Shown: positions 3,871 through 46,174 of the stretch, one piece after another
Layout of the letters: every line of letters begins with the position of its first letter
Numbering within the stretch: position 1 is the stretch's first letter
Source of the DNA: Carcharhinus amblyrhynchos
Taxonomy: Eukaryota
Reading direction: 5' to 3'
NCBI GenBank assembly: GCA_965287045.1
Contig: OZ336885.1
Coordinates: 65,224,001-65,288,000, forward strand
Length of the DNA: 64,000 nt
Program-made: the position numbers and the translations under genes
The notes under the pieces: model-generated
Databases searched by the model: none
The model's input: the letters and a program-made list of their open reading frames with translations, nothing else
Told to the model about the DNA's origin: nothing

Positions 3871-3889
3871 CCATCGCCAGATTCATCAG

Positions 3890-12811: not shown

Positions 12812-12832
12812 CATTATTGAGCTTGATTATTG
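12812..12832 (-). CDS. 21-nt microexon, phase 1: AIIKLNN
   Basis: cgctccggcctcag|CAATAATCAAGCTCAATAATG|gtagga; moderate splice signals. Confidence 0.45.
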
Positions 12833-13564
12833 CTGAGGCCGGAGCGTGTATTTTCATATCAAATTGCTCGATAAAGCTTGGATACAGTATCAACTAACTT
12901 TATGACGAGTCACACAGGTTATCATTCCTCCGTCCATTCTGTGTCATTGTTGTTCACAGCAGGAGCTTTTTCTTTGGCACAGTGAACGGTTCACTGCGTT
13001 TTCTGTATACCCATGAACAAGAATTTCAAGATTGAGTTGAACCTAAGTTCGGATAAATTATTACGCCTTCATTCAGAAAAAAAAAGACTGACTTAAACAA
13101 TCAATTTCTACTCTGCCTGATTGGGGAAACTTTGATGAGACGCATTTTCTTATCTCCACAGTATTAGGTGCCAGCATCCGTACATATCAACGAGTGGTGC
13201 AGCAGCCACAGTATTCGTCGTGAATTCTATCCAGTCCTGAAACGGGGTATTTCACTTTCTGGCATGCAAACCCAAACTTTCTCATCATTAACTGAACTCA
13301 GTAACATAAATTGAATGAGCACAATCTATGTTTTTGGTTTACCAGGAGGTGTTTCTCCGCAGACATAGTGCTGCATGTAAAGATGTTGCAGGACCGTCTT
13401 GGTACGTTGTTCTTATATTTGAATCAGGAACATTTAGCCTACTGGTAAACAAAATACTTGATTTTTTTTCTCCCCCAGCACATAACTTAATTTGCAACCG
13501 ATACCAGGGTTCTCAGGTTTAAAAATCTATAAGGGCCAACTGGGTAACGCTTTTCTGCACATAC

Positions 13565-13585
13565 CTGCGTCACGCTTTTTGAGGT
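13565..13585 (-). CDS. 21-nt microexon, phase 1: DLKKRDA
   Basis: ttttacccgttaatccgtacag|ACCTCAAAAAGCGTGACGCAG|gtatgt; 13/21 identical to exon 40780-40800. Confidence 0.7.
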
Positions 13586-13741
13586 CTGTACGGATTAACG
13601 GGTAAAAAAAAATGCTAATTTGAGACTGCGTTTCCGTTAGATTGGAAAGCATCATTAGAACAAAGAATAAGTCAGATCGTTGTTTTTAGTCTTTCTCTCC
13701 CTTATGTTCTCCCACTCGCGTTCTCTCTTTTTTTTGCTTAC

Positions 13742-13762
13742 CAGCTTCAAGAGAAGCTTTTG
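13742..13762 (-). CDS. 21-nt microexon, phase 1: (A/T)KASLEA
   Basis: ctaatggttttctgttttctcccaaag|CAAAAGCTTCTCTTGAAGCTG|gtaagc; branch point and pyrimidine tract present. Confidence 0.7.
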
Positions 13763-15393
13763 CTTTGGGAGAAAACAGAAAACCATTAGTATCCAAAATT
13801 GATTTTTTTTTAAATCGTAACTCATTTTTTTTTACTCTAACAGGAATTCTTACATCCAGCACTTCACTCAGTAACTCAGCCACAAACAATGCCGTGCATG
13901 AATAGAAACATGCGCTTGGAGAGTATTGCACACTTTCAATTAAACATGGATGTGATGAAAACATGACGAGTAACATTTTGTGAGAACTAAATCGACCATC
14001 ATTCGTCTTGGAAAAAAAAAGCAATTTTACTGGACTAACAACAAAATGAGCGTCCTCTGAACTGTATTCTTATTGAGTTTGAGAAAAGGCAGGTGCTTCG
14101 CCTGGTGTTGACAAATGGTCACCAATATGAAGTTTCATTGTCATAGTTTGTTCATTTCTTATTTCAAGTCAGATACATGAATATAAAGAAGTCAATTTTT
14201 TGGAGTGACTCCTGGAGATATTGTCACTTTCGTCGAAACAAGTGAACTTCAGGATCAGAAGCAGCACTCGAATTTGCAAATATGAAGGCAATAGTCATGG
14301 AAAAAGTGTGTTGCTGAAATGTTGCTGAGAGTGAATTCAGTTTGGAGGACAACAATGCCAACTTTAGTCTTAGCTGTGTCTATTTGAATAGTTCCTAATT
14401 CAACAGGAACCGTATGCAAATACATGTTCTCTCCAACCATATAAGATGTCACAGCGGTAGTTCTGCACTTATCTATAAAAGATACATCAATGAAATATTA
14501 CATGTTGCCACACACAAATTTGGCAGGTCACTTGGCAAAACAACCTCTGGGGAATCTGCAATAGTCAATAAGTCTGAAGACATGGAGGTCAAAACATCTT
14601 CATCCAATAACATTAAAAAATAATAAGGCTGTTGTGGAATTTTTGACAGTCTTGTGAACAGATGCAATTCATTCACCAAAAGCATTGAAAAAGAACCCTT
14701 CCGAATGACTGCATTCTATTATGACTCGCATGCAATTTATATTGTGTTCAGACAAGCACAGTTGATACGGTAGATTTTCTGAGGTTGGATTTCTGCAGAA
14801 TATAAATCCATAACTTTCTTGATTTCTCAAAATGTGAATTCCTTGGCATGGGAATAATGGAAGGCTAATTATCAAAGCAAAAGAAAAGCATGTGAAGCTG
14901 CCTAAAATCACATAACTGGCTGAGATTTTTTTTTCTCACTTTGAATTCACAATAGACTTACATAAAATAACACTTCTTCTAAATTGTTTTCTAACTTGAA
15001 TGGTATTATACGTTTGTACAAACCAACAGAATTAAACTGGGCATAACAGGGTCTTTTACACGTCAATGTCAGCAAAACGCTCTTGCTTGCCGCATAATCG
15101 TGTTCCAATCTGCAGCATCACCAGGCACGCATTTGGTCCGTTTGTTCAAATTTTGAAAAAAACATTCCACCTTATACCAGAACTGTACGCTACGGTGGAC
15201 GATCACCTGTTGTTCACGCTAGTGTTGTGTTGCTATTGCAAAGACGGTGCAGACCTGTGGTCGCATAAGCACGAAACAGACGGCGGTGATTCGGTTACAG
15301 GGGAGAACCATTGTGATTGCCAGGGCTAGAAAGTTCTTCCGTGGCGGAGAAATCGATTGCTTTCATGGGTAATTTCGTACAGATCTCCGTTAC

Positions 15394-15420
15394 TTTTTGT
15401 GCTGCATTTCTCTGATCTTC
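15394..15420 (-). CDS. Candidate 27-nt microexon, phase 1: GRSEKCSTK
   Basis: acatttctgcag|GAAGATCAGAGAAATGCAGCACAAAAA|gtaacg; weak donor; KC motif shared with neighbouring exons. Confidence 0.4.
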
Positions 15421-16076
15421 CTGCAGAAATGTTCCTGGCACTATGGTATTTAAGTAAAGCAGATATCTTTGAAACACAGTTCGAATGTGGAAGTGCGTAT
15501 TTACAAAGACGTAATTTAAGACAGTAAATAATTACAATATCAATATTTTTGTTTTAAATGAGAACAATGTTTTCCTTCATGTGATTCTCCCCATCGAATT
15601 GGTTTCTCGTGGACTGTGTAACTTCATTAGCAATATCTGACAAAAAAAAACAGCGCGACGTTACGGTCTCAATTGTCCTCAAAATGAAGAATCTCTTCCG
15701 AGTTGCAAGGATTGCAATTGTCCTCCGCTCGCCCGCGTCATTTACCGTGGCTGGTAAGGAAGATGTCAAGATTCAAATTATTATAACAGGAATACTGCAA
15801 TTTTTAAAGCTTTACATGTGTTCCTTCTACACAATATTTTAAATATTCTCAATAATTTGAGCCAAATTATTATTGACGCGACATAGTTCCCCATTTAAGA
15901 CATACCTCCCAAATTGGTACCAGACTTCAACTTTTATGAGAGTTGTCGGAAATTTATGTGCGGGATTTCAGGGGTTTTTTTTAGCTTAAGGTTAAGGTTA
16001 AGGTATCCGGCTTTTCCTTCGAACGTTTTCATTTGTTTCCCTATTTCTACGTAATCAGTGAGCCTCTTGCACTTAC

Positions 16077-16097
16077 CTTTGTTGCATTTGTTTGTTT
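16077..16097 (-). CDS. 21-nt microexon, phase 1: ETNKCNK
   Basis: ttttcccatcgaacaatgcag|AAACAAACAAATGCAACAAAG|gtaagt. Confidence 0.7.
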
Positions 16098-16351
16098 CTG
16101 CATTGTTCGATGGGAAAATATAAATAAGCGTCTGAATTTCTGTCCGAAATGAACCAGACATCCGACAATTACAGAACAAAAACAAACAGCTTCTGCCTCG
16201 ATCTCTCTTTGAAACACATTCATCTTTCAATCAAAATATTAGGTGTTGTAACCATTGGGAAATTGAGCGACGTCTCCACTAATCGTTCTATCTATCTGCA
16301 TCTTCAGCCAATTACTGAAAAAAAAAAGTGTGCAGCGTTTCATCCACTTAC

Positions 16352-16372
16352 CTGTTTGATATAAAATCTTTT
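16352..16372 (-). CDS. 21-nt microexon, phase 1: (E/Q)KILYQT
   Basis: Poly-T tract then atacgaaatag|AAAAGATTTTATATCAAACAG|gtaagt. Confidence 0.65.
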
Positions 16373-16633
16373 CTATTTCGTATAAAAAAAAGCTAGTCAA
16401 AATTCTGCCCAACAACTAACAAATTTATGTGACGAGAAACACAAATTAAACCTCAATTTTAGGAGATACATTTCTTTTCATATGTATTATTTCAAGCAGG
16501 CTCGTCATTCAAAGCTCATATGTTCAATACTGTAGCACAGTCGTCAACAGTGATGCATGGTGAGTTAAAATCAAATGCAATGTCGAAAGGTTGAAAGCAA
16601 ACAAAACGAAAAATGAAGACAATCAAAACAAAC

Positions 16634-16757
16634 GCCCTGGTTTTCACGGCACGGCCGCCCAAGGCTCCGAAGATCGCGGCCGAGGCCAAGGAGGAATGCC
16701 ATTCTGCGAGCCTCGACCGGCCCGATTTCGGGGCGGCCTTGCCAGTAAAATCCAGGC
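16634..16757. mobile_element. GC-rich hairpin MITE-like element
   Basis: 5' end cctggttttcacggcacggccg pairs with the reverse complement of 3' end cggccttgccagtaaaatccagg; internal arms are also partly complementary. Confidence 0.65.
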
Positions 16758-19215
16758 TAAAGTACGAGTGAAGGAGATCATGCCAATTTCTACAAACCGT
16801 GACCTAGCCCGCTTTTTTTTACCGTTTTGTGTTTTAGCGAACATGAAAATACAGTGGAAAGTATGTGGGCGTTTTTTTTTCCAAGAATGTTGGCACACAT
16901 ATGTTGCCTACGCTTTGAGGGTAAGTTGATTTATTGGAACTTTTCCCAATGCAGAACGAAAAAATTGGCAGAGGATTGTTTGGGACTTTCTCAATCTCGT
17001 GCGGGCCGAACCGGACACGTGTTTCGAGGTGGGTGGAGGAAGATAACCATTCCGTTTTTTGTGTCCATTTCAGGACTCGTCACTACTTTTGTCAGAACGG
17101 AATGAAATCGAAAATTATTTACCAACAAAAGTCAGTATGTTTATTTTCTTCATTCTTGGGGTGTGGGTTTCGCTGGCACAGTCAACAATTGTTGCACATC
17201 GGTGAGGATGTTTATGAGTTAACCAATTGTTTTCCGTCCGGAATCAGTTGTAGTCCAAACCAGGTAAGCAAAACAGATTTATTTCCTAATGGCCACATTC
17301 GCATGATGTGTTTTTTTTTCCTCAAACGGCGATGAACAACGATGCACCTATTACGCATTGAATATTTTCAGTTAAAGTAAATTGTGGCCATGGCCACTGA
17401 AAGAATTTGACTGAGATTTGATATCTTTAATCGGTTATGGGATGCTTTAATATCTGGTGACATGATTTGATTGTGATGTCATTAGTCTGTTGCTCACAAT
17501 TAGATATATTACTCCAGCTTTTTTTTTAATGTTCAAAGTTCACTATCTCCCGTGGTGGGCTGTTAATATTTGTCCAGTGATCATTACCCTGTGTCTCTGT
17601 ATAACATTTCCACTAGCGACAATACCGTGACAACATGAAAATACTATGAATTGTTTAGCGAGACACTTAGCCAATAAGCATGTTGAACAGGATGACATGT
17701 TTTATTCTATTGCACACAACGTTCTGAAATGTCGCTGTACATGATTGGAAAATAATAATCTAGTATTTATCTGGACAATTCTTCTCCTGAAACTAGTATT
17801 GCATTGTTTTGATGTAGGGTAGCGACAGAACGACAATCATCAGGCCACTCACATTCAATTAGAACTTCTGTAGTAAAATTTTCAACATTAATGACGAAAC
17901 ATTTTTTTCATCCTTCGAAATGATTCAGATAAATCATACTACAAAAGCTTAATATGGCGTTGCAGAGGACAGTAAATATTATGTCTGAACTCTGTAAATA
18001 ATTCGAAATGAATATGCTGCAACTGTGGAACGCACATATGTCTTAGCCGTGAAATTATCATAAACTAACTTTTTCTCTGCTTGTGGAAAGATATATTATT
18101 TTGACCATGCGTATTATCGAAAAATCTATGCGTATGTTTGACGTTCCTGACATTGCTGGAATGAAATGCAAATTAAACTTACTTGCTCCTTAATAGGACA
18201 AAGGATGCTTTTTTTGGTGGGGTGGGGGGGGGGGGTGCAGAAATGGGTCGTGGTCTTCTAAGATTTTGGAATGTTTCTTTCACGCGCTGAAAGAAAAACT
18301 TTGATCAGAAAATTTTTAAAGTAATTTCTCAGTGATTGTAGCAAATTTCGTGCTTATAAATTTAGCTGATTTGTTGGACCATATGTATGTATTATTTCAA
18401 TAATTCAATTTTTGAACAAATGTTTAAACACCTGAGCAATAATTTGTAAACCATTACCGCTAGCGATCAGTCTTAGATCACCAAAAGTTGCAAAGCAAAA
18501 CTTCAAGTGTTTTACTCGTTTCTTCAGTTGTAGCAGATTGCCTTATCTGCCCATTGTGAGTATCCATCAGACGTGCCCAAGCACATGCAACTCGGAAACA
18601 GTCCAGGAAAAGGTGTTTGCAACGAGTGCCATGGAACGTTAGCACACCTCGATGTGGTAACGAAAGCAATGGTTTATTTCTTGTTTGTGCGCCGAAATGG
18701 CACTGTCCTTTTTTTTTAATCATGCCATCACCAGAAAATGGTATGCATGAATTCCTTCGTGAGAATCATAATTTGATTTCCTTCTTGCTGCTCGTCTATT
18801 AAACGTCAATACAGATCAGGGGGAATGTTCACCAAATTACTTCAATGGACATCCAACTTGGAATGCAAGAAACATATTTCTTCCAACAAATGGCTTCGAA
18901 TTAAGATGTAGAAGGTATGTTCAGAATAATGTTCCTTTCTGTACGAAATTCATTAGTCTCCTTGTCCTGAGATGATGTCAGCTATGTCCCAGAATGCGAC
19001 ATGATGTTTGGATTCAACGTCTGAAATGTATTATCCAAATATTCTGTCGCATCTGTTCCACAACTAAAGACACGCGTGACCATGACACAGAGGCAGCATG
19101 ACGTACTGATTGGTGAAAAACTATGTTGCAGGAGTGTGCACCTAAGCGTATTCACCGTTTTGTTTTGCAAATCGTAACAACTTAAGAACGCCCACCACTG
19201 TAAGTCCCAGTGAAA

Positions 19216-19748
19216 ATGATGTGGATATGCCGGCGTTGGACTGGGGTAAACACAGTAAAAAGTCTGACAACACCAGGTTTAAGTCCAACCGATTTATTTG
19301 ACAGTAAACTCACAAGCTTCGGGTGTGTCCCTTCGTCAGGTGAATGGAGAGTTCTGGCCTCAGACAGAGCATGTAAAGCACAGACAGTTTACAGATTACT
19401 GATTAGAATGCGAATCTTTACACCTAATCTGCTGTTCAAGTCCTAAAGTGGCCGACAATGTGAATGGAAGGAGCACTGATCACAGGTTAAGGAGATGCGT
19501 ATTGTCTCCAGACATTACAGTAAGTGAGGTTTTACAAACCCAGGCAAGTCACAAGGGTAACAGATAGTGCAACATGAGCCCAAGATCCATGCTGAGACCG
19601 TCCTCACGTGTGCGGAACTTAGCTATCAGTCTCTGCTCAGCGACTCTGCGGTGTCTTGTGTCGTGAACGCCGCCTTGGAGAATGCATACCCGAAGGTCTG
19701 AGGCTGAATGCCCGTGACCACTGAAGTGGTCGCCAACAAGAAGGGAAC
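19216..19748 (-). mobile_element. PLE family A 3' fragment with 13-bp TSD
   Basis: Homologous to 2950-3420; flanked by agtcccagtgaaa at 19203-19215 and 19749-19761. Confidence 0.9.
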
Positions 19749-19768
19749 AGTCCCAGTGAAAGCCAGCA

Positions 19769-20820
19769 GATCATATTTCAGGTCAATGTCGGCGCTACAT
19801 CTTAACCTTTGCATAATATTGCGATCAATGGAGATGTTATTCATTCCGAAATTTTGCTTTTTGCAGGAGTCATACCCCATAAATCTGTCGAATAGGTTTT
19901 AAGTTGTTTATGTGGCATGCAATGTTATCTGGAAGATATTATAATTGCAGGGTCCAGTGACACATAATGAATGACTTAATAGGTTCGAACAGAAAATAAT
20001 TTGAAAAAGCCATCATGCAATGGAGAGCAATTCAGTCAGGTTCATTGGACAGATCTCTTCTAAAATAGCGTTCTGCCTTCTGAAGTCTTCACATCGACCA
20101 TTAATACCAATAACGGGGTCAAAATGGCTGAACTGGAAAAACTAATAAGTGGATATCGATGATGATTCAACGTTAAATGACGTTTATACATGCACATGCG
20201 TAGTTTTGCACGCCGAATGCACAGAGCAACGGCTACAGTCGTCGGAAGCCAAAGAATGTGACGTGACAGTCTCCATTCCATCAGGTAAAGAATGGCAAAC
20301 ATCCGTCTTTAACTTCGCTGTATGTTTGATTTGGTGTGTGTTGTCGAGTGTCATGGATGTCTCACCCATAGTGAATTAGTTAATGTTTTCGAACATGACA
20401 TCATAATTTAGCCATCGTGCAATGAACGACAATTCCGTCAGCTTCGTCGAACATGTGTTTTCTAAAAGACAGTTCAGCCTTCTGCTGTCTCTCCGTAAGC
20501 CATTACTGTCAATAACGGGGTCAAAGTACTTGCCTAAAAAAAAGAATGATACACTTCACTACGTGATATGCAAAACATAAAAAGGATTACATTCCAAAGA
20601 TACTTCCAAATAACTACGTGATTTTTTTGTTTTGTTCACTGGACCCTATACTTATGATACCTTACAAATAATTAGTCCGCCGCATCTGTTCATTAGACAT
20701 GTGGGCTATGACTCCTTTAAATGGCAAAATTTTGGAATTCTTAATACCTCCACTGGTAACAATGTAACAATGTTATGCAAGAGTTGTGATGTAGCGCTTA
20801 CTTTGATCTGAGTAAACGCT
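19769..20820. mobile_element. Old non-autonomous DNA transposon with ~125-bp TIRs
   Basis: 19769-19895 is a diverged reverse complement of 20685-20820 (shared gcgctacatc, ttgcataa, aaattttgc, aggagtcata); internal direct repeat at ~20028-20123 and ~20411-20525. Confidence 0.7.
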
Positions 20821-22830
20821 TCTGATAACAAACCAGTGGCTTTTAGTTTGTTTTATTGTCATCCAATCATGTGGCATGGATGTCCAGGTTTTATTGGCCA
20901 TCTTTAGTTGTGATGGTGCTGCTGAGCTTACTTCTTGAAACGTTAGATCTCACGTGATGTAGGTTGACCCAAAATACATTTAGAGAGAGAATGCCAGGAT
21001 GTTCTCCCGCTAACAACAAATTAAAGGCCATACATTTCAAATCATGATGTTGAGTGTTTACGAGAGGAACTTGCAGGTGACTTATATCTGTTGCACAAGT
21101 CCTTCTCAATTGAAGTGGTCGTTTCTCTGAAAGGTGCAATCCAAGTTGTTTTGGTAAATTTTAGCAGTGGGTATTATAGTTACTTTACACTGCTGCTCCT
21201 CAGTGTGAGTTGTGGATGAAATAGATGCTGGTGGATGTGGCACCACTCAGTAGGGTAGGGGAAGCTGCACACATTAAAGTCTCTGTGAAGTTTCACATCA
21301 CGCTCCTTACTGGCACATTGTAGATGGCTGGCAAGCTTTGGTGAGTTAGGGTTTGTGTTACTCGCTGGCATATTTCCAGTTTTTCTTCTGCTGTTTAAGA
21401 AATTGTGTTTTCGTGGCGAGTCCAGTTGAATTAATTCCAAACACCAAAACCAAAAACTTGACAGTGTGGGAATCAGTGATTAAATGTCAAGGAACGGTGA
21501 CCTAGACTGACCCAGACTGTCTCCTATGGCGATGGCCATTGCCGGCCATTTGTGTGAATGTTTCATGAAACGTTTTTGATTGGTAATTGTTGGATCTGAA
21601 ATGAACTGTTTCAGCATTTGATGTGCCGTCAAAAGTGGTGAACGTTCTGCAACGGTCCATAAACATCCCCATTTCTCAACTTATAAGGAAATCAGCTGAA
21701 TATTGTTGGACTAAGGACACTATCCTGAGGGAATCCTGCAAAGATATCCTGAACCTGATATAACAGATGCTCACATCCACAGTCATCTTCATACTCGTGA
21801 CTTATGACACCTAACAGAGCAAAAATTTCACGCAGGTACACATCGATTCTTGCTGTGACAGGCTTCCTTGCGTTCTTGAAGCCACTGGTTCCGACTCTCA
21901 TCTCACTTCCGGAATTCAACTATTTCATCAATGATTGCACCAAAACTGTATGTGGTATAGGAGCTGAGATTCCCTGGCGAATCCCAAATTGTGTTTCACT
22001 GAACAGGTAATTGCTGTGCAGGGTCTGCTTCAGAGCTCTGTTGAGATCGATTCTATCACTTTTCTGATTATCTATAACAGACTGATTGGCCGTTAATTGT
22101 CGAGTTGGTTCGCCCCGTTTTGTGCACAGGATGTGCATTGTTGTGCATTTCAACTGTACTGTTTTAGTTGTCCTGGAACAACTTAGGGGGCAGGAAGTTG
22201 TTTTGGAAAAATATCAAGTATTATCGCTGGAATGTTATCAGTGTAAATTCTCTTTGCCTTACCATATGGCCTTTAACAGTTTCTGTGATATGGATTTGCC
22301 GATGTTGGACTAATCATTAACCTCTGAACGAGCGGCATTCTGAAAGTTCATGCTAACAAATATATCTGTTGGACTTGAGCTGTGATGTTGTTCAACCAAT
22401 TCAACAAGTGCTTGCTATAACTTGAATTGAATCGAATTTAATGGAGACTGGCACCTGCGAAGCTGGGAACCACTGGAAAGCCTGATATGGATCATCTTCT
22501 TGGCAAATCTGGCTGAAGTTTGCTGCAAAAGTTTCAACCTTATGTTTTACACTGAGGTGATGAGTTTCACCACCACTGAGGATTGGGGTATTCGTGGACC
22601 TCCTTCTTCAGAGAATTGCTCTATTGCTCAAGACCATTCACGACTTGAACTGGCAAGACTGTAAATCCTGGATCAAATCTGTTGGAGGTGCGAACAGTTA
22701 GCTCTGATTATCACTTGTTGTTTATGCTGTTTGGCATGAAAATAGTTTTGTTCTGTTTCTTCACCTGGTTAACACGTCATTTTAAAGAATATCCGGAGCT
22801 GTTTCTGGTACGATCGCCTGAATTCACCCT

Positions 22831-23750
22831 TAAGAACATAAGAAATAGGAGCATGAGTAGGCCATCCAGACCTTCAAGCCTGCACCGCCGTTCAATAAGA
22901 TCATGGCTGATCTATAGTGGCTCAGTTACACTTTCCCGCTTTCTCCCCGTAACCCTTAATTTTCCTGCCAACAAAAAAAAACTATCTACCCGTATCTTAA
23001 ATATATTTAGCGAGGTAGCTCCACCACTTCAACGGGCAGAGAATGCCAGAGATTCACCACACTTTGAGTGAAGAAGTTCCTCCTCAACTCCGTTCTAAAC
23101 GGACCACCCCCCCCCCCTTATCTTGAGGCTGTGCCCTCTAGTCCTGCTGTCCTTTCTGGGCGGGAAGAATCTCCCTACCTCTACCCGATCCATCCCCTTC
23201 ATTATCTTATACGTCTCTATAAGATCCCCCCTCATCCTTCTAAACTCCAACGAGTACAGACCCAGTCTATTCAGCCTCTCTTCATAGCCCAACCCCCTCA
23301 TCTCCGGTGTCAGCCTAGTGGACCTCCTCTGCACTCTCTCCATGGCCACAATATCCTTGCGCAAGAGCGGCGACCAAAAATGCACACAGCACTCCAGTTG
23401 CGGCCTCACCAGTGCCATGTACAGTTGCAGCAAGACCTCCCTGCTTTTTATATTCTATCCCCCTCGCTATAAAGACCAGCATCCCGTTCGCCTTCTTGAT
23501 GACCTGCTTAACCCGCAGTCTGGGTTTTTGCGACTATTGCACAAGGACCCCTAGGTCCATCTGCACCGTAGCATGCTGCAGCTTTTCGCCCTTTAAATAG
23601 TAATCCCTCCTACTATTATTCCTGCCAAAGTGGATAACGTCACAATTGTTAACATTGTACTCCATCTGCCTGGCCCTCGCCCACTCGCTCAGCCTATCTC
23701 GATTTCTCTGCAGACTTTCCAAACCCTCTGCACAATTTGCTCCGCACAAT
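22831..23750 (-). mobile_element. Young 5'-truncated CR1/HER1-type LINE
   Basis: ORFs 23534-23749 (LQRNRDRLSEWARARQMEYNVNNCDVIHFG) and 23095-23433 (LYMALVRPQLECCVHFWSP); possible ttaa TSD. Confidence 0.95.
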
Positions 23751-26260: not shown

Positions 26261-26281
26261 GTAGTTCCATTTGCCGCAAGT
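26261..26281 (-). CDS. 21-nt microexon, phase 1: (D/H)LRQMEL
   Basis: ctcactgtatttttcttattttccag|ACTTGCGGCAAATGGAACTAC|gtaagt; very strong acceptor. Confidence 0.7.
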
Positions 26282-30192: not shown

Positions 30193-30213
30193 GACTGCAT
30201 CTCTTTTGCTTTT
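30193..30213 (-). CDS. Candidate 21-nt microexon, phase 1: EKQKRCS
   Basis: ctcactgaaccaaccatag|AAAAGCAAAAGAGATGCAGTC|gtaatt; weak signals. Confidence 0.3.
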
Positions 30214-31004
30214 CTATGGTTGGTTCAGTGAGGTAATCCATTTTCCAAAGATTGCACTTGCACACGGTCTTATTTCACAGTTCGAAGTAGAATAATGCAT
30301 CATTTGTAGACAGTTAGTAATTAACATATGTCCCAACTAATTTAGCAATATCCGTGACTTGACAATCAAAAAATAGGATGCACCATATGATTGTACCACT
30401 TTAATCATACGGTACGTTTTCCTCCCACGATTATCCTCGTATGTTGTGCTCAAGTATGCATGTTCATAATAAGTTTCTCACAAAAAAGTTATTCGTGCTA
30501 TGTCAGGAAAAGGATGTTACAGTCTGAGGAAATTAGATTTCATCTTCGACTGGGATTGCAAAAGCTGCCAGGACAATTCAAGCTCCGGAGCTGCCGTTGC
30601 TATCAGGTTCCATGTCGGGCCGGGAGAAATGAGACTCATTGCTTGACTTTATCCTGTATTACTCACTAATCTTTAAACAAACATTATAACAATTCGTAGG
30701 TATAGTCTCGCCTATCACTTAGTTGCATTCCCTGGATCATTAACGGGACAAATAACGCAAATTCGTGCAGAATGTTCAAGAGAATGTTGAAGAGGATGGG
30801 CAAGATTTATGCAACGGAAACATACCAGACAACAAGAATGACCAGCAAGACCGAAGGTTTTGGTTCACGAGCAAATTGATAAGCCGAGCTGAGATCTGCC
30901 GAACATTGGGAGGCTCCATGCAATGAGAAAGTGGAGGAGCTTGCTTGCGCTGTGAAGGAATGTTTCATGGATTCCTAAAACAGCAACATGGTAATGCCTG
31001 TGTA

Positions 31005-31325
31005 ACAAAGAACAAACAACAATGCAGCACGGGAAAGAGGCCATTCGGCCCAACGAGCCCGCGCCTCCATTTCAACATTTTGAGCCCCCTCTTCCACCCT
31101 TGACTCTTGTCTGCGCGCATTGGAATGAGGGGAAACTAATTTAGGGACAATTTGTTACACCAATCAGCGTAAGAGTACATCTTTGGGTGTGGGAGGAAAT
31201 GGGAGCATCCGGAGAAAACCCACGCAAGTACGGGGAGAATGTGCAAACTCCTACAGACACTGGCCCAAATCCATGTATCTGCACACCAAACAGTGATAGT
31301 CACTGAGCTGTCGTGTTGCTCATCA
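31005..31325 (-). mobile_element. HE1/V-SINE-type tRNA-derived SINE, decayed
   Basis: gtgggaggaaa..ggagca.ccggagaaaacccacgca...ggggagaatgtgcaaactcc core plus CR1-like tail. Confidence 0.8.
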
Positions 31326-31599
31326 GCTGGTCCAGTTTAAGCGTACGCTAACGACGTGAAGCACTAGGCTGCTCTCGAAACATCCAACAGCAGCCCTCGC
31401 ACGACCCACCGCGTGTCTGCCACTTGCTGGACAACAAGGCGAACCGAAACACCAGTGGATTAAAAGAGAGAAAAAAACATAAATAACATGCACATCTTAT
31501 GCAAACATTCAAGGGAATCTGCTGAAGCTCAAAAGTAAAACAAGTGAGCCAGAAATTATGTTGGGAGGATCATAGGAATCAATTGATTCCCAGGGACGT

Positions 31600-32530
31600 C
31601 CCAATGCTCTTGCTCCTTATTTAAAACAGTCTCCTATATCCGTCCATCTCCATCCCGTTCATGTACCTATGTAAGTATCCCTCAAACAACTCCAGCGTGC
31701 CTGCCTCCCCCATCTTACTTGGCAATGCATTCCATACCGCTAAAAGCCTCTGTGTGAAAAACCTCCCTCTAACATCCGAATTATGCCTCCCCCCACCACC
31801 CCGCCTGGCCCTAAGCCCGAGGCCCCTCGTAAAATTTGATTCCAAGCTAGGAAAAAACTTACCACTGTTTACTCTATCTATACCCTTCATAAACTTATAC
31901 ACCTCTATTAGATCTCCCTTCATTCTCCGTCTTTCTAAGGAAAACAGCCCCAATTTGCCCAATCTTTCCTCATAACCCAGTCCTTCCATACCAGGCAGCA
32001 TCTTGGTAAACTTCGTCTGCACTTTCTCCAGGTTTTCCACGTCTTTCGGCAGTAAGACGACCAGAACTGGACGCAGTACTCCAAATGCGGTCCAACCAAC
32101 GTTCTATACAGCTGCAACATTAGATGCCAGCCATTGTACTCTATACCCCTTCCTATAAAGGCTTACATAATATAAGCTTTCTTCACAACCTTCTTCACCA
32201 GTACTGCCCCCTTCAAAGACTTGTGAACTTGCACCCCCAGGCCCCTCTGCGTTTCGACACTCTTAATAGTTTATCATGTAACTCTCCCCGTCATTATTTC
32301 TTCTAAAATGCATCACCTCACATTTATCAGGATTAAATTTCATCTGCCATTTATCTGTCCAATACATCAGCCTATCTGCATTCTGTTGTATTGCCCGACA
32401 CTGCTCCTCACTGTCTGCCAGTCCAACCATCTTAGCGTCATCTGCAATTTTGCTAATCACACCACGTATTCCCTCTTCCAATTCATTTATGCATATTACA
32501 AATCGGAGAGGTCGCAGTACTGAGCACTGC
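31600..32530 (-). mobile_element. CR1-type LINE, 5'-truncated
   Basis: ORFs 32263-32643 (SVLRPLRFVICINEL..KIADDAK..WQMKFNPDKCEVMHF), 31935-32120 and 31621-32040. Confidence 0.95.
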
Positions 32531-36578: not shown

Positions 36579-36599
36579 CATTTTCCTCAGGCAGTTTCG
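36579..36599 (-). CDS. Candidate 21-nt microexon, phase 1: AKLPEEN
   Basis: ttgtttcacgcatttattcagttag|CGAAACTGCCTGAGGAAAATG|gtagac; a competing AG lies 4 nt upstream. Confidence 0.35.
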
Positions 36600-37194
36600 C
36601 TAACTGAATAAATGCGTGAAACAACAAATCAAAATTTTGACCAGTGACAATGCATTGGGTAAACGTATTAAGGGGCGCATTCTATAATTTTAATAACAGT
36701 CAACAAAAGGCCGGGTCCCCCATGAGTAAGTTGATAAAACTGCCTGCCCTTTTCTGTTCGAGCATAGACATCTAAAAGGACACACCCTACATTTGAGGGG
36801 GACTAGGTGCGCCGACATATTGCAAAGCAGATGTCAAAAGGAAGGGTAAATAATTGTTGTGGTATATTTTAGCCGAGATCTCGTCAGCTGCATTTATATC
36901 CCCTGCATCGATTCTGGAAAGCATCTAGCAAATTATGTACTAAAAGGAGGGAAGCGTGGAGATGGACAACAATACCATTTGTATGATGTGAGCTTCCGGG
37001 CCACCATATTGTGGCATACTGTAGCCCGTGGCATTCAAAGGTGTTTTTGTCTTTTATTTCTTATTGGCTCAAGTGCGATTTCATTGACACTGCAACGATG
37101 ATCCTGTTAAAATCCGCTAGTTGCCACATTCAAACGCTTCTTTGGGTTGCTGAGGGTCAACTTGGAATAGTCAAAACTCCAGAAGAGCACTGCC

Positions 37195-37340
37195 TTCCGA
37201 TTGTGGGAGAAAACTGGAACACCCGGAAGAAACATACGTAAACGCGGGGAGAATGAAAAGGTTCTGCGCAGACAGGGATCCAAGCTCGGATGTAAGACCG
37301 GTCCCTGGTGCTTTGAGGCAGCGCTGCTAGCCATTACGCT
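37195..37340 (-). mobile_element. V-SINE/HE1-type SINE fragment
   Basis: tgtgggagaaaactggaacacccggaagaaa...cggggagaatg core and tRNA-like head remnant. Confidence 0.7.
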
Positions 37341-38164
37341 GCATTAACAAAGCTTACACCTTACAGCTGAAAAAATGGAGGCAGGAATCATTTGCACTAC
37401 ATTATACTATTGTTCAGGGAAATGGGCAATGTAATTTCCACATTAACATCACCTATACCGTGTATTTAGATGCCAGATTACATGATCACCGCCCCCCCCC
37501 CCCCCCCCCCGAATAATTATTAGATAGGTACATGAGGCATGTTTGATGGACACAGCGTTACGAAGTTGGGTATAATAATGTAGATTGGGATCGAATAATT
37601 TAGGACGTGATGTTTGTAAGAATGACAAAATTATAAGACGCTAGGGGGTAAGGACTACATTGCTCCTTTAAAACCTAATACTTTCTTTTTTATGTGCTTC
37701 AAAAGCTAATACAATGCAAGTACATAGGGAGTCCCGAATTAAACAGTGCGGATAAAAAGGTCAAGAATAAGCTTTTAACCAAGGCAATAGACTATTCAAC
37801 TTCGTGAATCAATTTGATTCCGGCCCTTAGGTACAGAAAACACATTCAAATATGCCAAATGGCTTTGACAACCCAGGCCAAATCTATTGTGGGAAATTTT
37901 GATTTTATCACACGTCGAAAATAAGAAGCCAATGCAACAAAAATAGAGATCAACTGCCACATGCAAACTATAGTAGCTCTCAGTGCTCAATTCCAGACAA
38001 GGAGCGAGAGGATCGACGACTCTCAAAGATTCATATAGTCGTAGAGAAAGCACTTTCTAGATAACAAAGGAACCAAAACAAACATAAGACACAGACGGAA
38101 AAATCACAGCCAAGGCCCCGAAAATTCCGGAACTGAAACCGGTTTTAATTGAGACAAAGGATTT

Positions 38165-38215
38165 ATGATTATTATTGTTATTGTTATTATTATTATTATT
38201 ATTGTTATTATTTAT
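38165..38215. repeat. (ATT/GTT)n microsatellite
   Basis: Direct reading. Confidence 0.9.
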
Positions 38216-38444
38216 ATAACGAGGGTTGTAAATACAGTTTTTTTTTCAATGTTATTTCGATAAATGAATTATGTGTTGATTTTAGCGTGAGTGTCAGGAA
38301 TTTATTTTTTTTAATGAACCACTAGGAATTGCTGAAGCGCAAGCCACATCAATTCACGCAGTTTTACAGATTATTAGACCATGCACTCCTCTTTGGCCGG
38401 TCGGTGTTAGTTCTCAGAGGGGGCGGCAAATCCTACATGTAGCA

Positions 38445-38935
38445 GGTTGGGGACTCAGACCCGATATTTTAACAGTCTTAAGTCTTCAAATGAAATTTAA
38501 GTGAGAAGTGGAAAATCTGTTTAATTTAGGTGGTTTGCTGTTAGTTAAACCAACCGTCGGAAAATGGTTCTTTGAATTGTTTAAACGAAAAGTTCAAGGG
38601 ACCCAAGATGCTCCTTAAATTTGTCCCCCCCCCCCCCCCAAAAAAGGACAGAAAAAGTTGACAAATTTAGAATTACCAAACGGGCAAAAAAGGGTTAATC
38701 CAGGGAGAATAAGAAAACTGGAATCATAACAGAGCTAGCCAAGCATTTAGGTCCATCAGACAAACACATTAGTACATTGGAGTTTGATAAAAAATGTAAA
38801 TTTCATGTGAGACAATTGGAATTAGAAAGTGAAATTAAAAGGCCGGAGTTGGAAAATAATGAGAGAACAGAACACGTTGTTCGAGTTCAACAAGGTGGAG
38901 CTGGAACTTGAAGCAAAAATAATGAAAAAAAAATA
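38445..38935 (+). mobile_element. Decayed LTR retrotransposon (Gypsy-like) PBS and gag N-terminus
   Basis: tggggactcagacccgat resembles the tRNA-Pro PBS TGGGGGCTCGTCCGGGAT; downstream frames give IITELAKHLG and RQLELESEIK, typical of a gag N-terminal coiled coil. Confidence 0.5.
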
Positions 38936-40244
38936 AACCTTAATACTTGCTGATATTTTACAGCACTTCTTTTTGTCTGTCCCGCCTGCATCCACATCTT
39001 TCTTTCTGGCCACTATCGAAACACTAAGACTGTTTAGAAAGTTTATGAGAGAATTCTGAGGGGGTAAAAAAAAACATGAACCTCGTGTTTACCATTCTTT
39101 TAACAGATTACAGTCAGTAAATATGAACCCCATTTTACTGGATATGAGGCAGAGGTCTCCAGCGTAGATTCAAAGGTTTGATATTCTGTACAGTGTTGAC
39201 GCAGAAGTGGAGAGGTTCACATTTCCAGGAACTGTATCACATATCCTGGCTCTATTTGCCAATAATGTCATGGTGAACAAAATGTTAGGTAAAGCTGAAT
39301 CTACTGTCTCATCAACTCCAACCAATGACCTTCTTAGCTTAAATCCCTAATGATATAATAAAATTTGCATGTCTGAATTCAAACTATTGTCTTCTCGTAT
39401 TGCTTTTTTGCAATCCAGATCGAGTCTCCTTATTTTTGAAAGTTTTTCATTTTAACTTTGTGATGAATTTTTATTTTTGTGGCATGGAAGGTTCTGGGTA
39501 GAAACGCATATATTTTCCACCCCTGATTGACGTTAACAATGGTGATGGCCTCTTCAAGGTGTATGTTCAGCAAGAGTGCTATTGCTGAATGCATTCCAGC
39601 ATTGTGGCGGCCATTATAAAGCATGTGTGTGGCACATTTCTGGAATGAATGTGGCTTCCCAATTGGCAACCCAAGTCTTGTATTATCCAACTCTGTACGA
39701 TGGCTGTTTGCGAATAAGACATCTATTTGACACGTTGTTTCTAATTTCCTGATCAAAAATGTGTCCCCCAAAAACTTCAACAAGCATTGTCATAATGTCT
39801 TCATTTGTGACACGTTTTCATTCCCCAGCAGCTCGTTAATATTATTGACTCCATTGTACATTTTGTGTCCTCAAAACGGGGCTCTAAGTCTCTCCATGAA
39901 TGCCTGTGTCCAGTGCAGTGATACTATGGGTGTAGTTAACTATTCACAAGTCAAAACCTCCTGTAAGCTGACAAAAATATACACTTTGAAAAAGGACATG
40001 AATCCCGCCCCTCACCGCCTATCGATTGTCTGTGTCATTCTTTTCTGATTGTAAAGCAGAAAGCAAACTACCCGTCCACAAATAATTGTAAAGCAGAAAA
40101 CAAAAACAATAAAATGAAACAAAAAAAACTTGTAATTGAATCCTTTCAGCATAGAAACAGTTCAACTAACACTTTCAATCTCTACGGACTGCCCGAAAGA
40201 ACATTTCATTCAGACCTTGGCCGCATTAACACGCGTACTTAATA

Positions 40245-40470
40245 CGCTAATATCCCCAATCGACACACCCTGTGATGATAAGAACAAATTCAGTATGGCC
40301 ACGTCAATTATTGGACATATATTTGGACGGGAGGAGCAAAACAAATCCCGCAGGCGAAACCCACGCAGACACACAGAGAACGTACAAACTCGACGACAGC
40401 AGTCACGCAAGGCTAAAATTGAACAACATCCCCTGTCACTGTGAGGAATCAGGGATAATAAATGTGCCAT
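40245..40470 (-). mobile_element. V-SINE/HE1-type SINE, decayed
   Basis: aaattcagtatggcca...gggagga...aaacccacgcagacacacagagaacgtacaaactc. Confidence 0.75.
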
Positions 40471-40574
40471 CGTGCGTAGCCTGTTTTGACGTTAATATGG
40501 AATGCAGACATTAAATCGATCAGAAAGTAACTCGTTTGAGTCAAAGGGCCAAAACGATTTCTTCGATTGCAGCG

Positions 40575-40576
40575 GC

Positions 40577-40608
<32 letters not shown>

Positions 40609-40620
40609 CATCTCTCCCTC
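40575..40620. repeat. (CT)n microsatellite
   Basis: Direct reading. Confidence 0.9.
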
Positions 40621-40779
40621 AGTGTGGATAAATTTAATTTCAAAACCTGATTCATGGGAACAACAGCGGATGCGGACCTACTGTGTTTGCTGGAACAGCA
40701 ATGGCGTTGTTCTCCGTTTGGAAAATTCATAGAAGGTCATAGCTTATATGAAATTAATAACACGTGGTGATACACTTAC

Positions 40780-40800
40780 CTCCTTTGCATTTTTTAAGAT
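40780..40800 (-). CDS. 21-nt microexon, phase 1: DLKKCKG
   Basis: atttatgttgtggcttgcag|ATCTTAAAAAATGCAAAGGAG|gtaagt; phase 2 contains a stop. Confidence 0.7.
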
Positions 40801-41559
40801 CTGCAAGCCACAACATAAATCTAATGATAAGTAAGGCCAAAATTATATATTTTTTCCTCAAACTGTCTGAAAGACCTTGCAATAAACAGGGATTTAACTT
40901 TCAATTTCACGAAAGGTGTGGAGTGTGACATTGCTCGTTGATTCATCATTCCCAACCATGGATTCATATGGTAAACCAACAAAAAAAAACAGCGATATTT
41001 CAGTCACCCTCGTAAATATAATTACACGGATTTAGAGGACAGGAAATATTTTCAACAAAAAACAATAACCCTAAGTATGATCACGCATATTTGTGCTTTA
41101 CTCATATTGGTGGTTTATTTTAGCTCATTTATTGGATCGCTCCGGTAATCGTATGCTTGTTATTTTGCAGTCAACGTACAGGTTTGGATTCAGTGCTTAT
41201 GTTGGCTGAACGTTCTAGAGGAGAAATAGCAATATACCGGACTATGTACGATTCGTAATGAATTGATAACTCCCAGAACCTTTTCGAGGGAGGGTGAAAG
41301 TCGATATTTGTCGTGGACAAAACACCAGCGAAGGTTAGTAACGTTGTAATTTATTGGCCCAATGAAGTATGTTTTACACATTTGGGAAATAAATATTTCG
41401 AAAACTTTGCACAAGGATTCAGAACACGGCAATCTTTCAGAATATTATTATTCATTTTAGTTCCAATAGAATAAAATTTTGAAAATGCAAATAAGAACAC
41501 TTTTCGGAATAAACATGTATATTTTGGGGACATTATACCAAGAAGTTTACAGCCTAGAA

Positions 41560-42170
41560 ACTCACTTGATTTGATTAAATTTGATTTACGATTGTCACAT
41601 ATATTGGGATGCAATGAACGGTATTATTTCTGGCGTGTTTTCTCGACAATGCATTGGGTTCATAGCAAATGAAACGAGAGAATACAATATGCAATGTTAC
41701 GGTCATAGCTAGGATGTAGAGAACGTTCGACATGATGCAAGTTTGTTCTATTCAAAAGTATGTTGGCAGCAGGGACGAAGCTGGTCTTGAATCCGTTCAG
41801 CTGTGACTTCAGATATTTGTAACTGTTTCTCGATGCGAGAGGGTGGAACAGAGTATTCCCGGATGCGTGGGGTCCAAAATTATTTGTGTTGCAGAGGTAG
41901 AGGGAAGTGTGAACAGATTCAATGGATTGGAGGCTGGTGATGGCTTGGGCTACAATCACGAACTTTTTTTTTTAGTTTCCTGCAGTCTTCGGCAGGGAGT
42001 AGCCAAACTAAACTGTGGGGCAAACAGAAATGATGCTTCCTATCATGCACCGCTAAACGTTGGCGAGAGTCGTTGTTGGATTTTATTTATTATAATGTAG
42101 GCAAGGGGAGACCCGGGCAAGTTGTTGTCGTTGAGTTACCCCAAAAACTCATATTCTGGACCAAGTACAA
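41560..42170 (-). mobile_element. Rex1/Babar-clade LINE 3' fragment
   Basis: ORF 41660-41959 (LQSIESVH...HASGNTLFHPLAS...YKYLKS..NGFKTSFVPAANILLN); (aaatc)n tail as at ~62595. Confidence 0.8.
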
Positions 42171-45100
42171 ATATTATAACAAGACTGATATGTGTCGAAG
42201 CAATAGTCAATTTGTGACACCTACCAACAACGTATCAAAGGCATTTATCCTTTCAATCCAAATTCAGGTGTTTTCAGGACCTATGCAATCACATACATTC
42301 CAAGTAAATGATATGCTGTCAGATGGAGATGATTTGGGGAACACTCCTGCTGGCCTTGCAGTCATGGCTGCCGATAACAATATGTTAATTCCTTACGATC
42401 AGTCAGCAGCAATTAACATACATATGTAGAAGCTCCTGAATCATCTGACATTAGTTGTGTCAGAGTCGTCATTCACAAGAAAAATCCACATCATAGGGGA
42501 CTTCTCGGACACTTCACTATAAATTTATTGAGAGCTAAGTGAAAATAAACGAAGGACGCTGCAGGTTATTCGATATATTTGCATGCGCTCATCCCGATTC
42601 CTTGTCTTTCTTGCAAACTGAATTGAGTCCTGCGTCTGTGCTGCTTCTACGAATTGAATTCACAATCTTCAACTGTTGAGTGAAATGTGGCCTTTCAGAT
42701 CCATGTCGATATTCAACGGGCAGACTTTGATTATTTGAAATGGATTAAATTTACAAACCAAAGAATTCAGTAAAAACGGCGTTCCCTGAACATATCATTT
42801 ATTTTTATCATTTCCAAAGTCGTAAAATTATATTTGATATTTTATTTGAAATTTCAGAATTAAATGTTTGTTTTTAGACACAAACGGTTTGAGAATATAT
42901 GTCCTCAATCCCGTTTGTCAACATAAAGTTATGTTGCTATATTACAACATTGACAGATATCCCCAATAAATGCCCCCTTTGGTTATATCTAGTCAGCTTG
43001 CAAAACAAATGAAGTTCCACGGTTCAGCTAATTTGACCACTACTTGGTTTAGCAGCTTCTGGTTCATTGAATCTACCGTGATACGGTACGCGCATAGGAA
43101 AACGCAGAAAATATCTTGCATATCGCCTGAACTTATGTTTTATGTCTAATACTCAGGACTCTTCTCGTGAATGTGTAAATAATCACTCTCCTTATAAAGA
43201 CATAGACAGCATACTCGTGAAAAGTCTGTTCAATATAGCAATGCAAATTGGTGTGTACATCCAAGACCTTTTCTGACCTTTTGATTTTCCACATTTATTG
43301 ATCTGTTTTCCCCGTTTCTACATGACATTAATTCTTTCCATGAAGATTGTTCAATTCCTCTTTTTTTTTTAGTTTTGCCCTTTAATTCCAAATCTCCTTT
43401 CAATGGTATCTATGTGGGTATCCGTCATGGTTGATTTGTGTGACTGATAATTTCCTGGAAGCATCTGGGCAGCCAGTTGGTTCTAGTTTCGTGTATGTCA
43501 CATTTCTCTTTCCTCTCTGGGCGCATGCAAAAACATTTCTGTTTTTAATGCTGAACTTCACATTGTCACTAATTTCTCTTCAAGTTTTAACCCGTCGAAT
43601 CTGTCCAGATCACTTCACATCTTGAATCGTTTGTACGACTGCCATATCGGTTCTTAACAAAATGTACACTGAACATAACGTTATTAGGGTCCGTATTCCA
43701 AAACAAATATCCCGCCGTAAACTCTTGCGTTTGCACAGCCACATTTTTGAATGCTAAATCTTCTGCTACCCTCCCCCGCCCCCCAATTTTTGTTATGTCA
43801 GTACTCGAAAACTGTCACACTGAGAGTGGCGCTACAGCACGGAAGAAGTAGATTCAGCCCAAAACTTCTTTTGTGTCTCCTCACAGAAATCCAACGAAGA
43901 TAGGCGAAGAACGGGTAATGGGGGTGAACGGGCAAGATACATATGGACCACCACCCAGGATCGGAATCAAAGTTGAGTGTCTGGTGCCTGTGAGGTAGCA
44001 TCGCGAGCCATGTTGTTCACAGAAGCTAAAAGCAGTTGGATCATTTCGAATCTGTGTGGCCATCGCAATCCTAATTGCGTCAGGGAAGAAAAGTCAAAAA
44101 TTGCCGATGCCTGATTCTTGTACTGGGAATGCGCACTCATATTTGTTTTCGATCTCCATTTCTCCAGCTGGTGGCCTCACTCCTGCAGTGTGGCTGCCAC
44201 TCTTCATCATTTCAGAACTAATAACATTTGAAATCGGTTAATTATTGAATTGCTTAATCATCGTCCTTCACAGCTGTATTTAACTGCTTAGTTCATGGAT
44301 TTTCACACTTCCTCCCCTTCCCGACATGTCAATATTTAGTGATATTGATCCGTACGTTTTTTATTCTCTCTGGATGCTGCAATACCGTTGTTTCAACGAT
44401 ATTATCCTGTTGCATTACATTAAGTGTTCTTAGACCTTCGATCTCCTCTACAACATTCCTTCAGTTTAACATATGTGTTTAGCAACCTGAGATTCATTTT
44501 GGTCAATCGTGTTGTTTTGTTAATTCTGTATTTTGGAGTCAAACACTGACTCAATTTTCAGGTTGTGGTCGATTCCCGCCTCCTAAAATTTAGTCTCCTA
44601 TTTCCTTCTGCGATTTTTCGTGAATGAACCGATAATTTGGCTCTCAGCTCCACGCCAATCGTGCAAAAAACTTACCCGGATATTTGAAACATTGCATTTT
44701 TGGTATTTTCCATCTCGAATTCAGGGCTAGATGAATTGACTTGAAAGTTCTTACGGACTGGTATGATTTAAGAAACAAAACGGTTGGTGGAATTCGAACT
44801 CTGCAATGCCATAAATTAATGATTTGAGATTTGAAATGTAGTTTGGGAAAGGATGTTTGTCGACACTGAAGACAATTTACATTACTCAAAACTGGTAAGA
44901 ACTTGGACACTGCTTATCTGGTGTTTGTCTACTCGTTTAATACAACACGGTAGTCGGAGACAATCGTGCCACATTTGGAAAAATGAAAACTTAATCTTCT
45001 TTTTTTTAAATTAGGCCCAATAGTAGGCATGCATTGATGCTACAAATAATTTACTGTCAAAGTAGAAAATATAGGTCAGTGATGCTTAGATCAAAATTGA

Positions 45101-45256
45101 CCAACTTCTTAAATGTGAACAGCCATTAACCAATTGTACATATTTATCAGCGCTAACATTTGTCTCATGTTAATGCCATCAATATGGGGTGTGATGGCAG
45201 AAAGGTTGGGTGTGGGGGCGTATGGGGGCCGTGACCTAATTGGCAATCAAACTTAC

Positions 45257-45262
45257 CTTCGC
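45257..45262 (-). CDS. Candidate 6-nt microexon (GCGAAG)
   Basis: gctttattttaag|GCGAAG|gtaagt; consensus donor, preserves phase 1. Confidence 0.25.
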
Positions 45263-45970
45263 CTTAAAATAAAGCTGAATCTTATGCAACTAGCTTTAAA
45301 AGGTCAAGGACTGCACCATTAATCTTGCGTACATTGGATAGAACTCTCATTTTTTTTTCTGGTTTCCTATGCCTTGAAGTTCATGTTTTTTTTCCTTAGG
45401 CACATATTAAGACCGTTGTCAGTCTTCCATTTTGAAGTGTGGAATTTCCCTCATAAAGATTCCCAGTCCTCTACTGCCATGTGTCGATACATTCCTCCTT
45501 TGAGCTGAATTAGGGCATGAAGTGAACTTCCGCTTTCTACGCGAACAGCATATGTGGAAGTCAGAAAATAGAGTGTGTGCTCAAATTCCTGTGCCATAAC
45601 CAATTTTGGTCCAATTACACAAACATGGTTACCTCTATTTCTAAACTATAAGCTGTACTTAATTGGCAAACGTTGTTTTAATAACATTTAAAGCCTCGTT
45701 TGTGTTAACATACCGCTCGCTGCATCTCTTGGAAATCGACCACAACCTGAAAATTGAAATAATGTTAGAATGAAATGTGTTCTTTATTTTAAACAGAAAA
45801 ATTAAAAACATAGACTTGAAGTATGTCCCAAAAAGCAAGACAGCCTCCAAAGTTAACCATCGAACTGTGGATAAGCTAATTCTGAACAAGTGATCCTCTA
45901 TGCACAACAACATTGATGTTTTTAGTCTTCATACCAAGTTAAGGGTTTTTTTTGCAACATGAGGATTCAC

Positions 45971-46174
45971 TCTTTTCCCACAGTTCAAAAACAGGTTTTA
46001 TGCTTCCAATGATTATACAGGTAATACTAAGAAGAAGAAAAAGCATAAAACAAATAAACCAAATCATAGAATGGCAGTTGTGGCTACATTGTCTGTCATC
46101 AATTGCCGAGTGCGAAATGCCCTTAAAAAAATCGTTCTTCAGTGCCTCTTCTTTGAACCTCGGCACTATGTGTC
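45971..46174 (-). CDS. Candidate 204-nt phase 1-1 exon encoding a transmembrane segment (MIWFICFMLFLLLSITCIIIGSI)
   Basis: Acceptor ttgcttcttttctctggatttgccatcag|; weak donor AGA|gtgaat; open frame equals ORF 45939-46223; lies upstream of all the 21-nt exons. Confidence 0.45.

Follow-up and report, generated by a model that had tools for sequence, protein, structure and literature searches.

The window analysed here is the whole stretch of 64,000 nucleotides of Carcharhinus amblyrhynchos contig OZ336885.1 (C16) between positions 65,224,001 and 65,288,000. Its minus strand carries part of an array of very short exons, mostly of 21, 27 and 36 nucleotides (nt), for which 188 phase-1 exon calls were retained over 1.34 Mb of contiguous DNA. 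It is highly probable that this coding array is real. The explanation that we prefer, at a probability of about one half, is a single giant predicted gene whose 21-, 27- and 36-nt exons encode a coiled-coil rod studded with cysteines, likely with a B30.2 end that lies beyond the scanned DNA. The DNA read amounts to 1.8 Mb around the window (1.864 Mb contiguous) and 15 spaced samples. Coordinates outside 1-64000 are given relative to the window, and the 5' direction of the minus strand is that of the higher numbers.

Microexons of 21 nt in the window

A preliminary description of the window had proposed six strong 21-nt exons with AG and GT ends, all on one strand and outside repeats. The AG/GT ends of the named segments were confirmed at their coordinates, and none of the segments falls within the self-repeat mask. 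An untrained splice matrix, made of generic textbook frequencies, finds seven minus-strand segments of 21 nt between 12.7 and 46.2 kb, compared with 38 summed over the 36 other lengths, and not one of this length on the plus strand. The excess at 21 nt to be expected of such an array is thus present, with a Poisson probability of about 1e-4, or about 0.01 after correction for 74 length-strand classes.

A splice model trained on 98 exons, all of them outside the window, was used to score the 267 minus-strand AG-21-GT segments. The seven highest scores belong to those starting at 40800, 13585, 16097, 16372, 13762, 26281 and 12832, which include all six of the strong exons. A score of at least 10 is reached by five segments on the minus strand, by none of the 188 on the plus strand and by 0.23 per shuffle (30 shuffles). 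The exon encoding DLKKCKG (40780-40800) ranks first and fits the array consensus, and is followed by DLKKRDA (13565-13585, rank 2), ETNKCNK (16077-16097, rank 3), EKILYQT (16352-16372, rank 4), AKASLEA (13742-13762, rank 5) and DLRQMEL (26261-26281, rank 6). The exons starting at 26281, 16372 and 13762 reach their high rank from the splice sites alone, without resemblance to the array consensus. Among the weaker segments that had also been put forward, AIIKLNN (12812-12832) holds as a borderline exon, seventh in rank and with a weak acceptor, while the 21-nt segments at 36579 and 30193 and the 27-nt segment at 15394 have background-level scores in the trained model. From 12811 to position 1 the minus strand is intron, and the array continues beyond the window start.

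Reading phase and heptad register

The six strong exons are open in phase 0 as well as in phase 1, and for this reason the assignment of phase 1, which had been deduced from the window, rests on the wider array. When the untrained matrix is applied to 1.15 Mb, the minus strand gives 54, 41 and 34 candidates at 21, 27 and 36 nt, compared with 4-18 at other lengths. The plus strand gives 11, 9 and 25 at the same three lengths, and 18 of those 25 contain phase-1 stops. In the 129 minus-strand candidates of 21, 27 and 36 nt, stops occur in 51 for phase 0, in 68 for phase 2 and in 6 for phase 1, while for the 98 candidates at other multiples of three the counts are 35 in phase 0, 32 in phase 1 and 37 in phase 2. 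This distribution over the extended array shows that phase 1 is the reading phase.

The trained model, run over 1.35 Mb, gives 191 calls on the minus strand and 14 on the plus strand, counts that are partly circular in that 105 of the exons were in the training set; the untrained test is free of this circularity. Removal of one 12-nt, one 33-nt and one 48-nt call, the last of which sits in the open reading frame (ORF) of a retroelement, leaves the 188 exons. These hold 1,671 codons, with 4 prolines and 14 glycines among the 1,483 that are unsplit.

The codons follow a heptad register. In the 21-nt exons (n = 63) leucine occupies codon 2 in 41 and cysteine codon 5 in 24, and the two positions together are hydrophobic or cysteine in 85 of 126 cases, compared with a mean of 32 and a maximum of 46 in 5000 shuffles. 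At codons 2, 5, 9 and 12 of the 36-nt exons the same count is 110 of 160 (shuffle mean 48, maximum 65). The 27-nt exons that directly follow a 36-nt exon (n = 20) have their peaks at codons 4 (50%) and 7 (60%), as a continuing heptad predicts, so that a pair of 36- and 27-nt exons makes three heptads in unbroken register. When the exons are read in order, a periodicity of 3.5 is found in the proximal parts and a weaker one of 3.6 distally. The extended array agrees with the preliminary description in what it had said of one heptad per 21-nt exon, of a long modular coiled coil and of a hidden predicted gene on the minus strand; the size that it gave to this gene was too small by at least 40-fold.

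Extent of the array and number of genes

The 21-nt series, in which the heptad [DE]L[AKST]KC[KQN]x recurs, runs on the minus strand down to -422,830. Next come nine units in tandem, 14-20 kb long and 91-95% identical to one another, which all contain one exon of 36 nt and one of 27 nt. Beyond these, mixed exons of 18, 27, 36 and 15 nt reach at least -1,299,447. Minus-strand exons of the types of the array were also found in the samples at 63.82, 63.45, 63.30 and 63.15 Mb, so that the array has been sampled up to 2.1 Mb away; the sample at 63.70 Mb yielded one call, of 42 nt, and no exons were called at 63.58 and 62.95 Mb.

On the 5' side of the 21-nt series lies a run of 27-, 30- and 36-nt candidates, from 194 kb to 48.9 kb, with 9 calls versus 2 on the opposite strand. 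It is closed by a candidate 36-nt phase-1 exon at 48837-48872 on the minus strand (acceptor 3.4, donor 12.0). This run may form the beginning of the array gene, or else the end of a different gene.

The existence of this separate run, and the shift of exon types along the array (21 nt, then 36 and 27 nt, then 27, 36 and 15 nt), would be expected if the array, instead of being one megabase gene, were divided into several genes in tandem, each a few hundred kb long and with first and last exons too short or too divergent to detect. Nonetheless, no domain exon of the host-gene families searched was found anywhere in the contiguous span, the gaps between called exons have a median of 3.7 kb and a maximum of 33 kb, and the 21-nt block is not repeated, given that only one isolated 21-nt call occurs further on. 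We consider a division into several genes rather unlikely.

The array has sister arrays on the other strand. One of them, on the plus strand from +309,063 (position 5063 of stretch L059) to +563,333, is inverted with respect to the main array and begins with 21-nt exons, which are followed by 27- and 36-nt exons; it has 27 called exons versus 3 on the other strand, and two of its candidates have GC donors. It is seen again in the samples at 65.85 and 65.95 Mb (L205 and L206). A third array, also on the plus strand, was met in the samples at 62.4 and 62.7 Mb (L203 and L204); it converges on the main array and has a local duplicate at 62.77 Mb. In a genome-wide search with a pattern for the 21-nt type, 12 of 14 matches fall in the array region, while a control pattern gave 1 match. 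The one outside match that was examined has no microexons beside it.

Duplicate copies and relatives

Most exons of the array are single-copy sequence. Units of intron plus exon have repeatedly been duplicated in tandem, at several ages, and old copies can be found by their intron flanks alone. At flank identities of 65-82%, 19 of the 22 recognisable homologues are intact as exons, a count that excludes 9 unaligned or repeat-match rows, one ambiguous 75-nt match and the young near-identical copies. A splice site has been lost in three old copies and in one younger copy, and these recognisable exon copies without AG or GT are the minus-strand pseudo-exons at -167416, -225467, -299235 and -667640.

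The four losses, and the lack in most sets of a bias towards synonymous substitutions between copies, are what a decayed gene, or repeats that mimic exons, would give. The survival of the old copies argues against this, as do the phase-specific absence of stops, the register that runs across exons and the single-copy nature of most exons, and we regard decay or mimicry as very improbable.

Genomic contigs from two relatives, organisms A and B, were compared with the window. Among the differences listed, two fall in microexons and both are synonymous in phase 1. One is a change at 26274, within DLRQMEL, which is present in both relatives. The other is the sole change in the 33-nt phase-1 exon candidate xCGRFPRDAAS (45714-45746, minus strand), which lies directly before the 21-nt run, has moderate splice scores and keeps its splice sites in the two relatives.

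Search for the domains of a host gene

The 21-nt exons had led to the proposal of a butyrophilin, MOG or BG member, that is, a protein with Ig domain(s), a transmembrane (TM) exon at 46174-45971 and a cytoplasmic tail of heptads. Exons of 21 nt whose first codon is split, and which encode a heptad apiece with cysteines, are reported for BG tails in the available parts of two accounts (PMC5938342, PMC4046983). The tests that bear on the Ig domains, on the TM exon and on the register of the heptads all failed.

The TM-like segment (45971-46174, minus strand) has splice scores of -1.1 and 1.0, and its hydrophobic stretch is 64% T. In organism B its 204 nt differ by 13 substitutions and by a deletion of 2 bases, which is of 1 base in one contig of low depth, similar to the intron beside it, with 17 substitutions and an insertion in 224 nt. 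The hydrophobic stretch carries the changes L>H, S>R and C>R as well as a frameshift in organism B, a comparison that comes from one sample and in which the deletion falls in a T run; in organism A the frame is intact. The segment was rejected as a constrained exon, given that it is T-rich, diverges like intron, has weak splice sites and is frameshifted in organism B.

Pfam scans of ORFs and motif scans gave no Ig, B30.2, lectin, RING or other domain of a host gene for the array. The Pfam scans comprised 1,088 ORF submissions, in four cases the first 146 of 215, 150 of 163, 150 of 264 and 87 of 179 listed ORFs, and their matches were retroelement domains, an IQ retrocopy and noise below the threshold; repeat-masked ORFs, and those extending over two fetched stretches, were included in the later whole-span ORF searches only. 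No IgV or IgC exon was found upstream, either by Pfam in the non-repeat ORFs that both strands hold between 46 and 310 kb or by a motif scan of 1.06 Mb, and no V-set match lies on C16 among the best 150 of 1794 candidates in the genome. The Ig exons that might have been sought above position 64000 were not found up to 260 kb upstream or within the array. No RING or B-box had a Pfam match among the longer upstream ORFs to which the scan applied.

In the other direction, the B30.2 or C-type lectin exon that might have stood below position 1 was not found within 1.3 Mb downstream. Genome-wide, no SPRY or PRY match lies on C16 among the best 150 of 373-393 candidates. No C-type lectin exon was found in the fetched DNA that was scanned, and none lies on C16 among the 122 matches listed (150 of 211 candidates scored).

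The register points the same way, with hydrophobic residues at codons 2 and 5 in the array and at codons 4 and 7 in BG, and so does the number of exons, at least 188 compared with 13-37 in the BG genes covered by the available parts of those accounts. The butyrophilin and BG reading is largely refuted, and we regard it as most improbable.

Membership of the tetherin/PLVAP cluster was also considered. Members of this cluster stand beside PLVAP and have an N-terminal TM segment. PLVAP is on C26 and the array on C16, so the array is not beside PLVAP and this assignment was rejected.

Predicted product and its anchoring

In the single giant gene that we favour, the exons would be spliced in order into one giant transcript encoding the cysteine-studded coiled-coil rod. 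Each 21-nt exon would contribute one heptad, with leucine at codon 2 and often cysteine at codon 5. All exons are symmetric, with phase 1 at both ends and lengths in multiples of three, so that units could be gained, lost or skipped without a break of the frame and the length of the rod would be freely tunable. Two chains would probably pair in parallel, with glutamate or aspartate at position g and lysine or glutamine at position e. A coiled coil rises by 0.1485 nm per residue, and the rod, of at least 1,670 residues, would thus be about 250 nm long. Such a rod, free of Ig domains and membrane anchor and lying in the cytosol, would pair and space the putative B30.2 end as a recognition domain, in a manner analogous to the coiled coil of TRIM proteins or the tail of BG.

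Several observations weigh against this gene and its product, besides the partial circularity of the trained-model counts. No B30.2 was found by tblastn and phmmer in 42,135 ORFs from the 1.864 Mb and the 15 samples, where a shark B30.2 query recovered only itself. Neither the first nor the last exon of the gene was located in the DNA scanned. A protein look-up with the TM-like segment and with a 57-residue frame holding the repeated 36-nt exon gave nothing significant, in a search with few shared words and targets of at most 2000 residues; shark proteomes are in the database, and a control look-up with a PLVAP exon matched Mustelus asterias at 88% identity and further sharks and rays at 57-79%. 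When paralogous copies are compared codon by codon, most single-base changes alter the residue in four of the five sets (such as 3:27 and 0:20 synonymous to non-synonymous), while the fifth has 40 synonymous to 55; the neutral synonymous share is 0.24-0.29, and the pairs are not independent. This excess gives no support for purifying selection at the protein level. Selection may bear less on the residues than on frame and splicing, or change itself may be favoured. Finally, cysteines are present in 64 of 172 exons (24 of 63 of 21 nt, 21 of 60 of 27 nt and 19 of 49 of 36 nt), a frequency that is equally compatible with a secreted, disulphide-linked fibre.

The last point leads to the same microexon rod in a different setting, either secreted or anchored at its N-terminus, as an extracellular fibre cross-linked by disulphides or as the neck of a very long receptor, in both cases without B30.2. 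The cysteines lie at the heptad core, the lack of B30.2 in 1.86 Mb would be natural for such a protein, and the necks of type II lectin receptors are also built from phase-1 heptad exons. A signal-peptide-like stretch from an ATG to a donor is present at about +304,220 on the minus strand (L059:208-221), 4.8 kb from the first exon of the plus-strand array; it is T-rich and possibly due to chance. All the hydrophobic candidates examined are T-rich, one of them has a duplicate without an in-frame ATG and another, the TM-like segment, is unconstrained. The signal-peptide or TM candidates at 46067, 167395, 199313 and 304221 were rejected as T-rich or unsupported, and homology upstream of the minus- and plus-strand arrays that would mark their first exons was not found. 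N-glycosylation sequons number 6 in 1,702 residues, which is not above the composition expectation of about 8. On C16 between 62 and 67 Mb there is no match to a fibrinogen, C1q, olfactomedin or TNF domain, with all 102, 64, 28 and 28 first-look candidates scored. Considering these points together, we find a secreted or anchored rod unlikely.

A wider form of the single giant gene is possible, and we advance it tentatively. One shark gene of more than 2 Mb, with at least 300 symmetric microexons, would be flanked by inverted sister genes in a CpG-rich domain of 4 Mb. It would encode a coiled-coil molecular ruler several hundred nm long, with a length set by exon duplication and skipping, and would belong to a family of vertebrate micro-exon genes largely missed by annotation.

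Comparison with known systems

Chicken BG genes have 13-36 exons of 21 nt each, in the portion of the account available (PMC4046983), and up to 37 in other haplotypes, where IgV and TM exons precede them and the hydrophobic codons are 4 and 7 (PMC5938342, likewise in part). As in BG, the array forms a coiled coil from many 21-nt exons (63 called) with one heptad each, a split first codon and cysteines, in a number that varies by duplication. Unlike these BG genes as far as described there, it spreads at least 188 exons of 21, 27 and 36 nt across more than 1.3 Mb, its hydrophobic codons are 2 and 5, and neither an Ig nor a TM exon was found. In butyrophilins there are IgC and B30.2 domains in addition, and in TRIM proteins RING and B-box, according to the sections consulted of PMC8813856. 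The array shares with butyrophilins and TRIM-B30.2 proteins of this description a coiled coil that putatively leads to a B30.2 domain; it differs in the lack of IgV-IgC-TM, RING or B-box exons in the scanned ORFs and in a coil that goes far beyond a few heptads. Given that the Ig, TM and register tests failed, the array is assigned neither to BG nor to the butyrophilins.

The micro-exon genes (MEG) of Schistosoma have 10-20 exons and encode proteins of up to 189 residues with a signal peptide, in the part available of bioRxiv 10.1101/2023.06.21.545858. As in that account, the coding sequence consists almost entirely of short exons, mostly multiples of three, that gene predictors miss and exon skipping can vary. 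The array has ten times as many exons as the MEG reported there, which are flatworm genes, and no sequence relation is proposed. A description of such a shark gene was not found in the full-text literature searched, in which subscription journals are mostly not covered.

The heptad-per-exon principle, known from BG tails of 13-37 exons in the available parts of those accounts, would be scaled here to at least 188 exons and more than 1 Mb. There are three or more such arrays, and their tandem growth can be seen at different ages. The array gene would rank among the most exon-rich genes of vertebrates. It is not visible to ORF-based annotation, and it allows one to ask whether symmetric microexons let the length of a protein evolve, or be spliced, in steps of one heptad. 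If it is true that a B30.2 domain ends the rod, an unstudied arm would be added to the innate immunity of sharks.

Other sequence features of the region

The ratio of observed to expected CpG lies between 0.58 and 0.75 in the contiguous 1.86 Mb and between 0.51 and 0.76 in the samples from 62.4 to 66.25 Mb; it falls to 0.34 and 0.26 at 66.5 and 66.8 Mb and is 0.19-0.38 at three 3-kb loci elsewhere. The CpG-rich domain is coextensive with the arrays, which suggests low germline methylation.

Among the tandem duplications, the nine units of the main array (stretches L079-L124, -440 to -593 kb) include several with broken, retrovirus-like gag-pol pieces in the intron. Upstream, between +151.9 and +193.8 kb (L010-L048), a tandem duplication of about 22 kb with 83-88% identity contains candidate exons of 27, 30 and 36 nt, together with what may be one of 9 nt.

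An intron of the array holds, on the minus strand, an intronless and frame-broken copy of an IQ-motif gene resembling SPATA17 (L185:1788-2297, Atlas score 0.94), which is likely a processed pseudogene. Long gag-like open frames of 476 and 574 residues without Pfam match are present at L208:6471-7898 and in L162-L163, the latter adjoining matches to protease and reverse transcriptase. Within the window, the repeats at 2952-6105, 22831-23745, 31004-32525 and 61148-63995 are interspersed and consist mostly of decayed LINE-like pieces.

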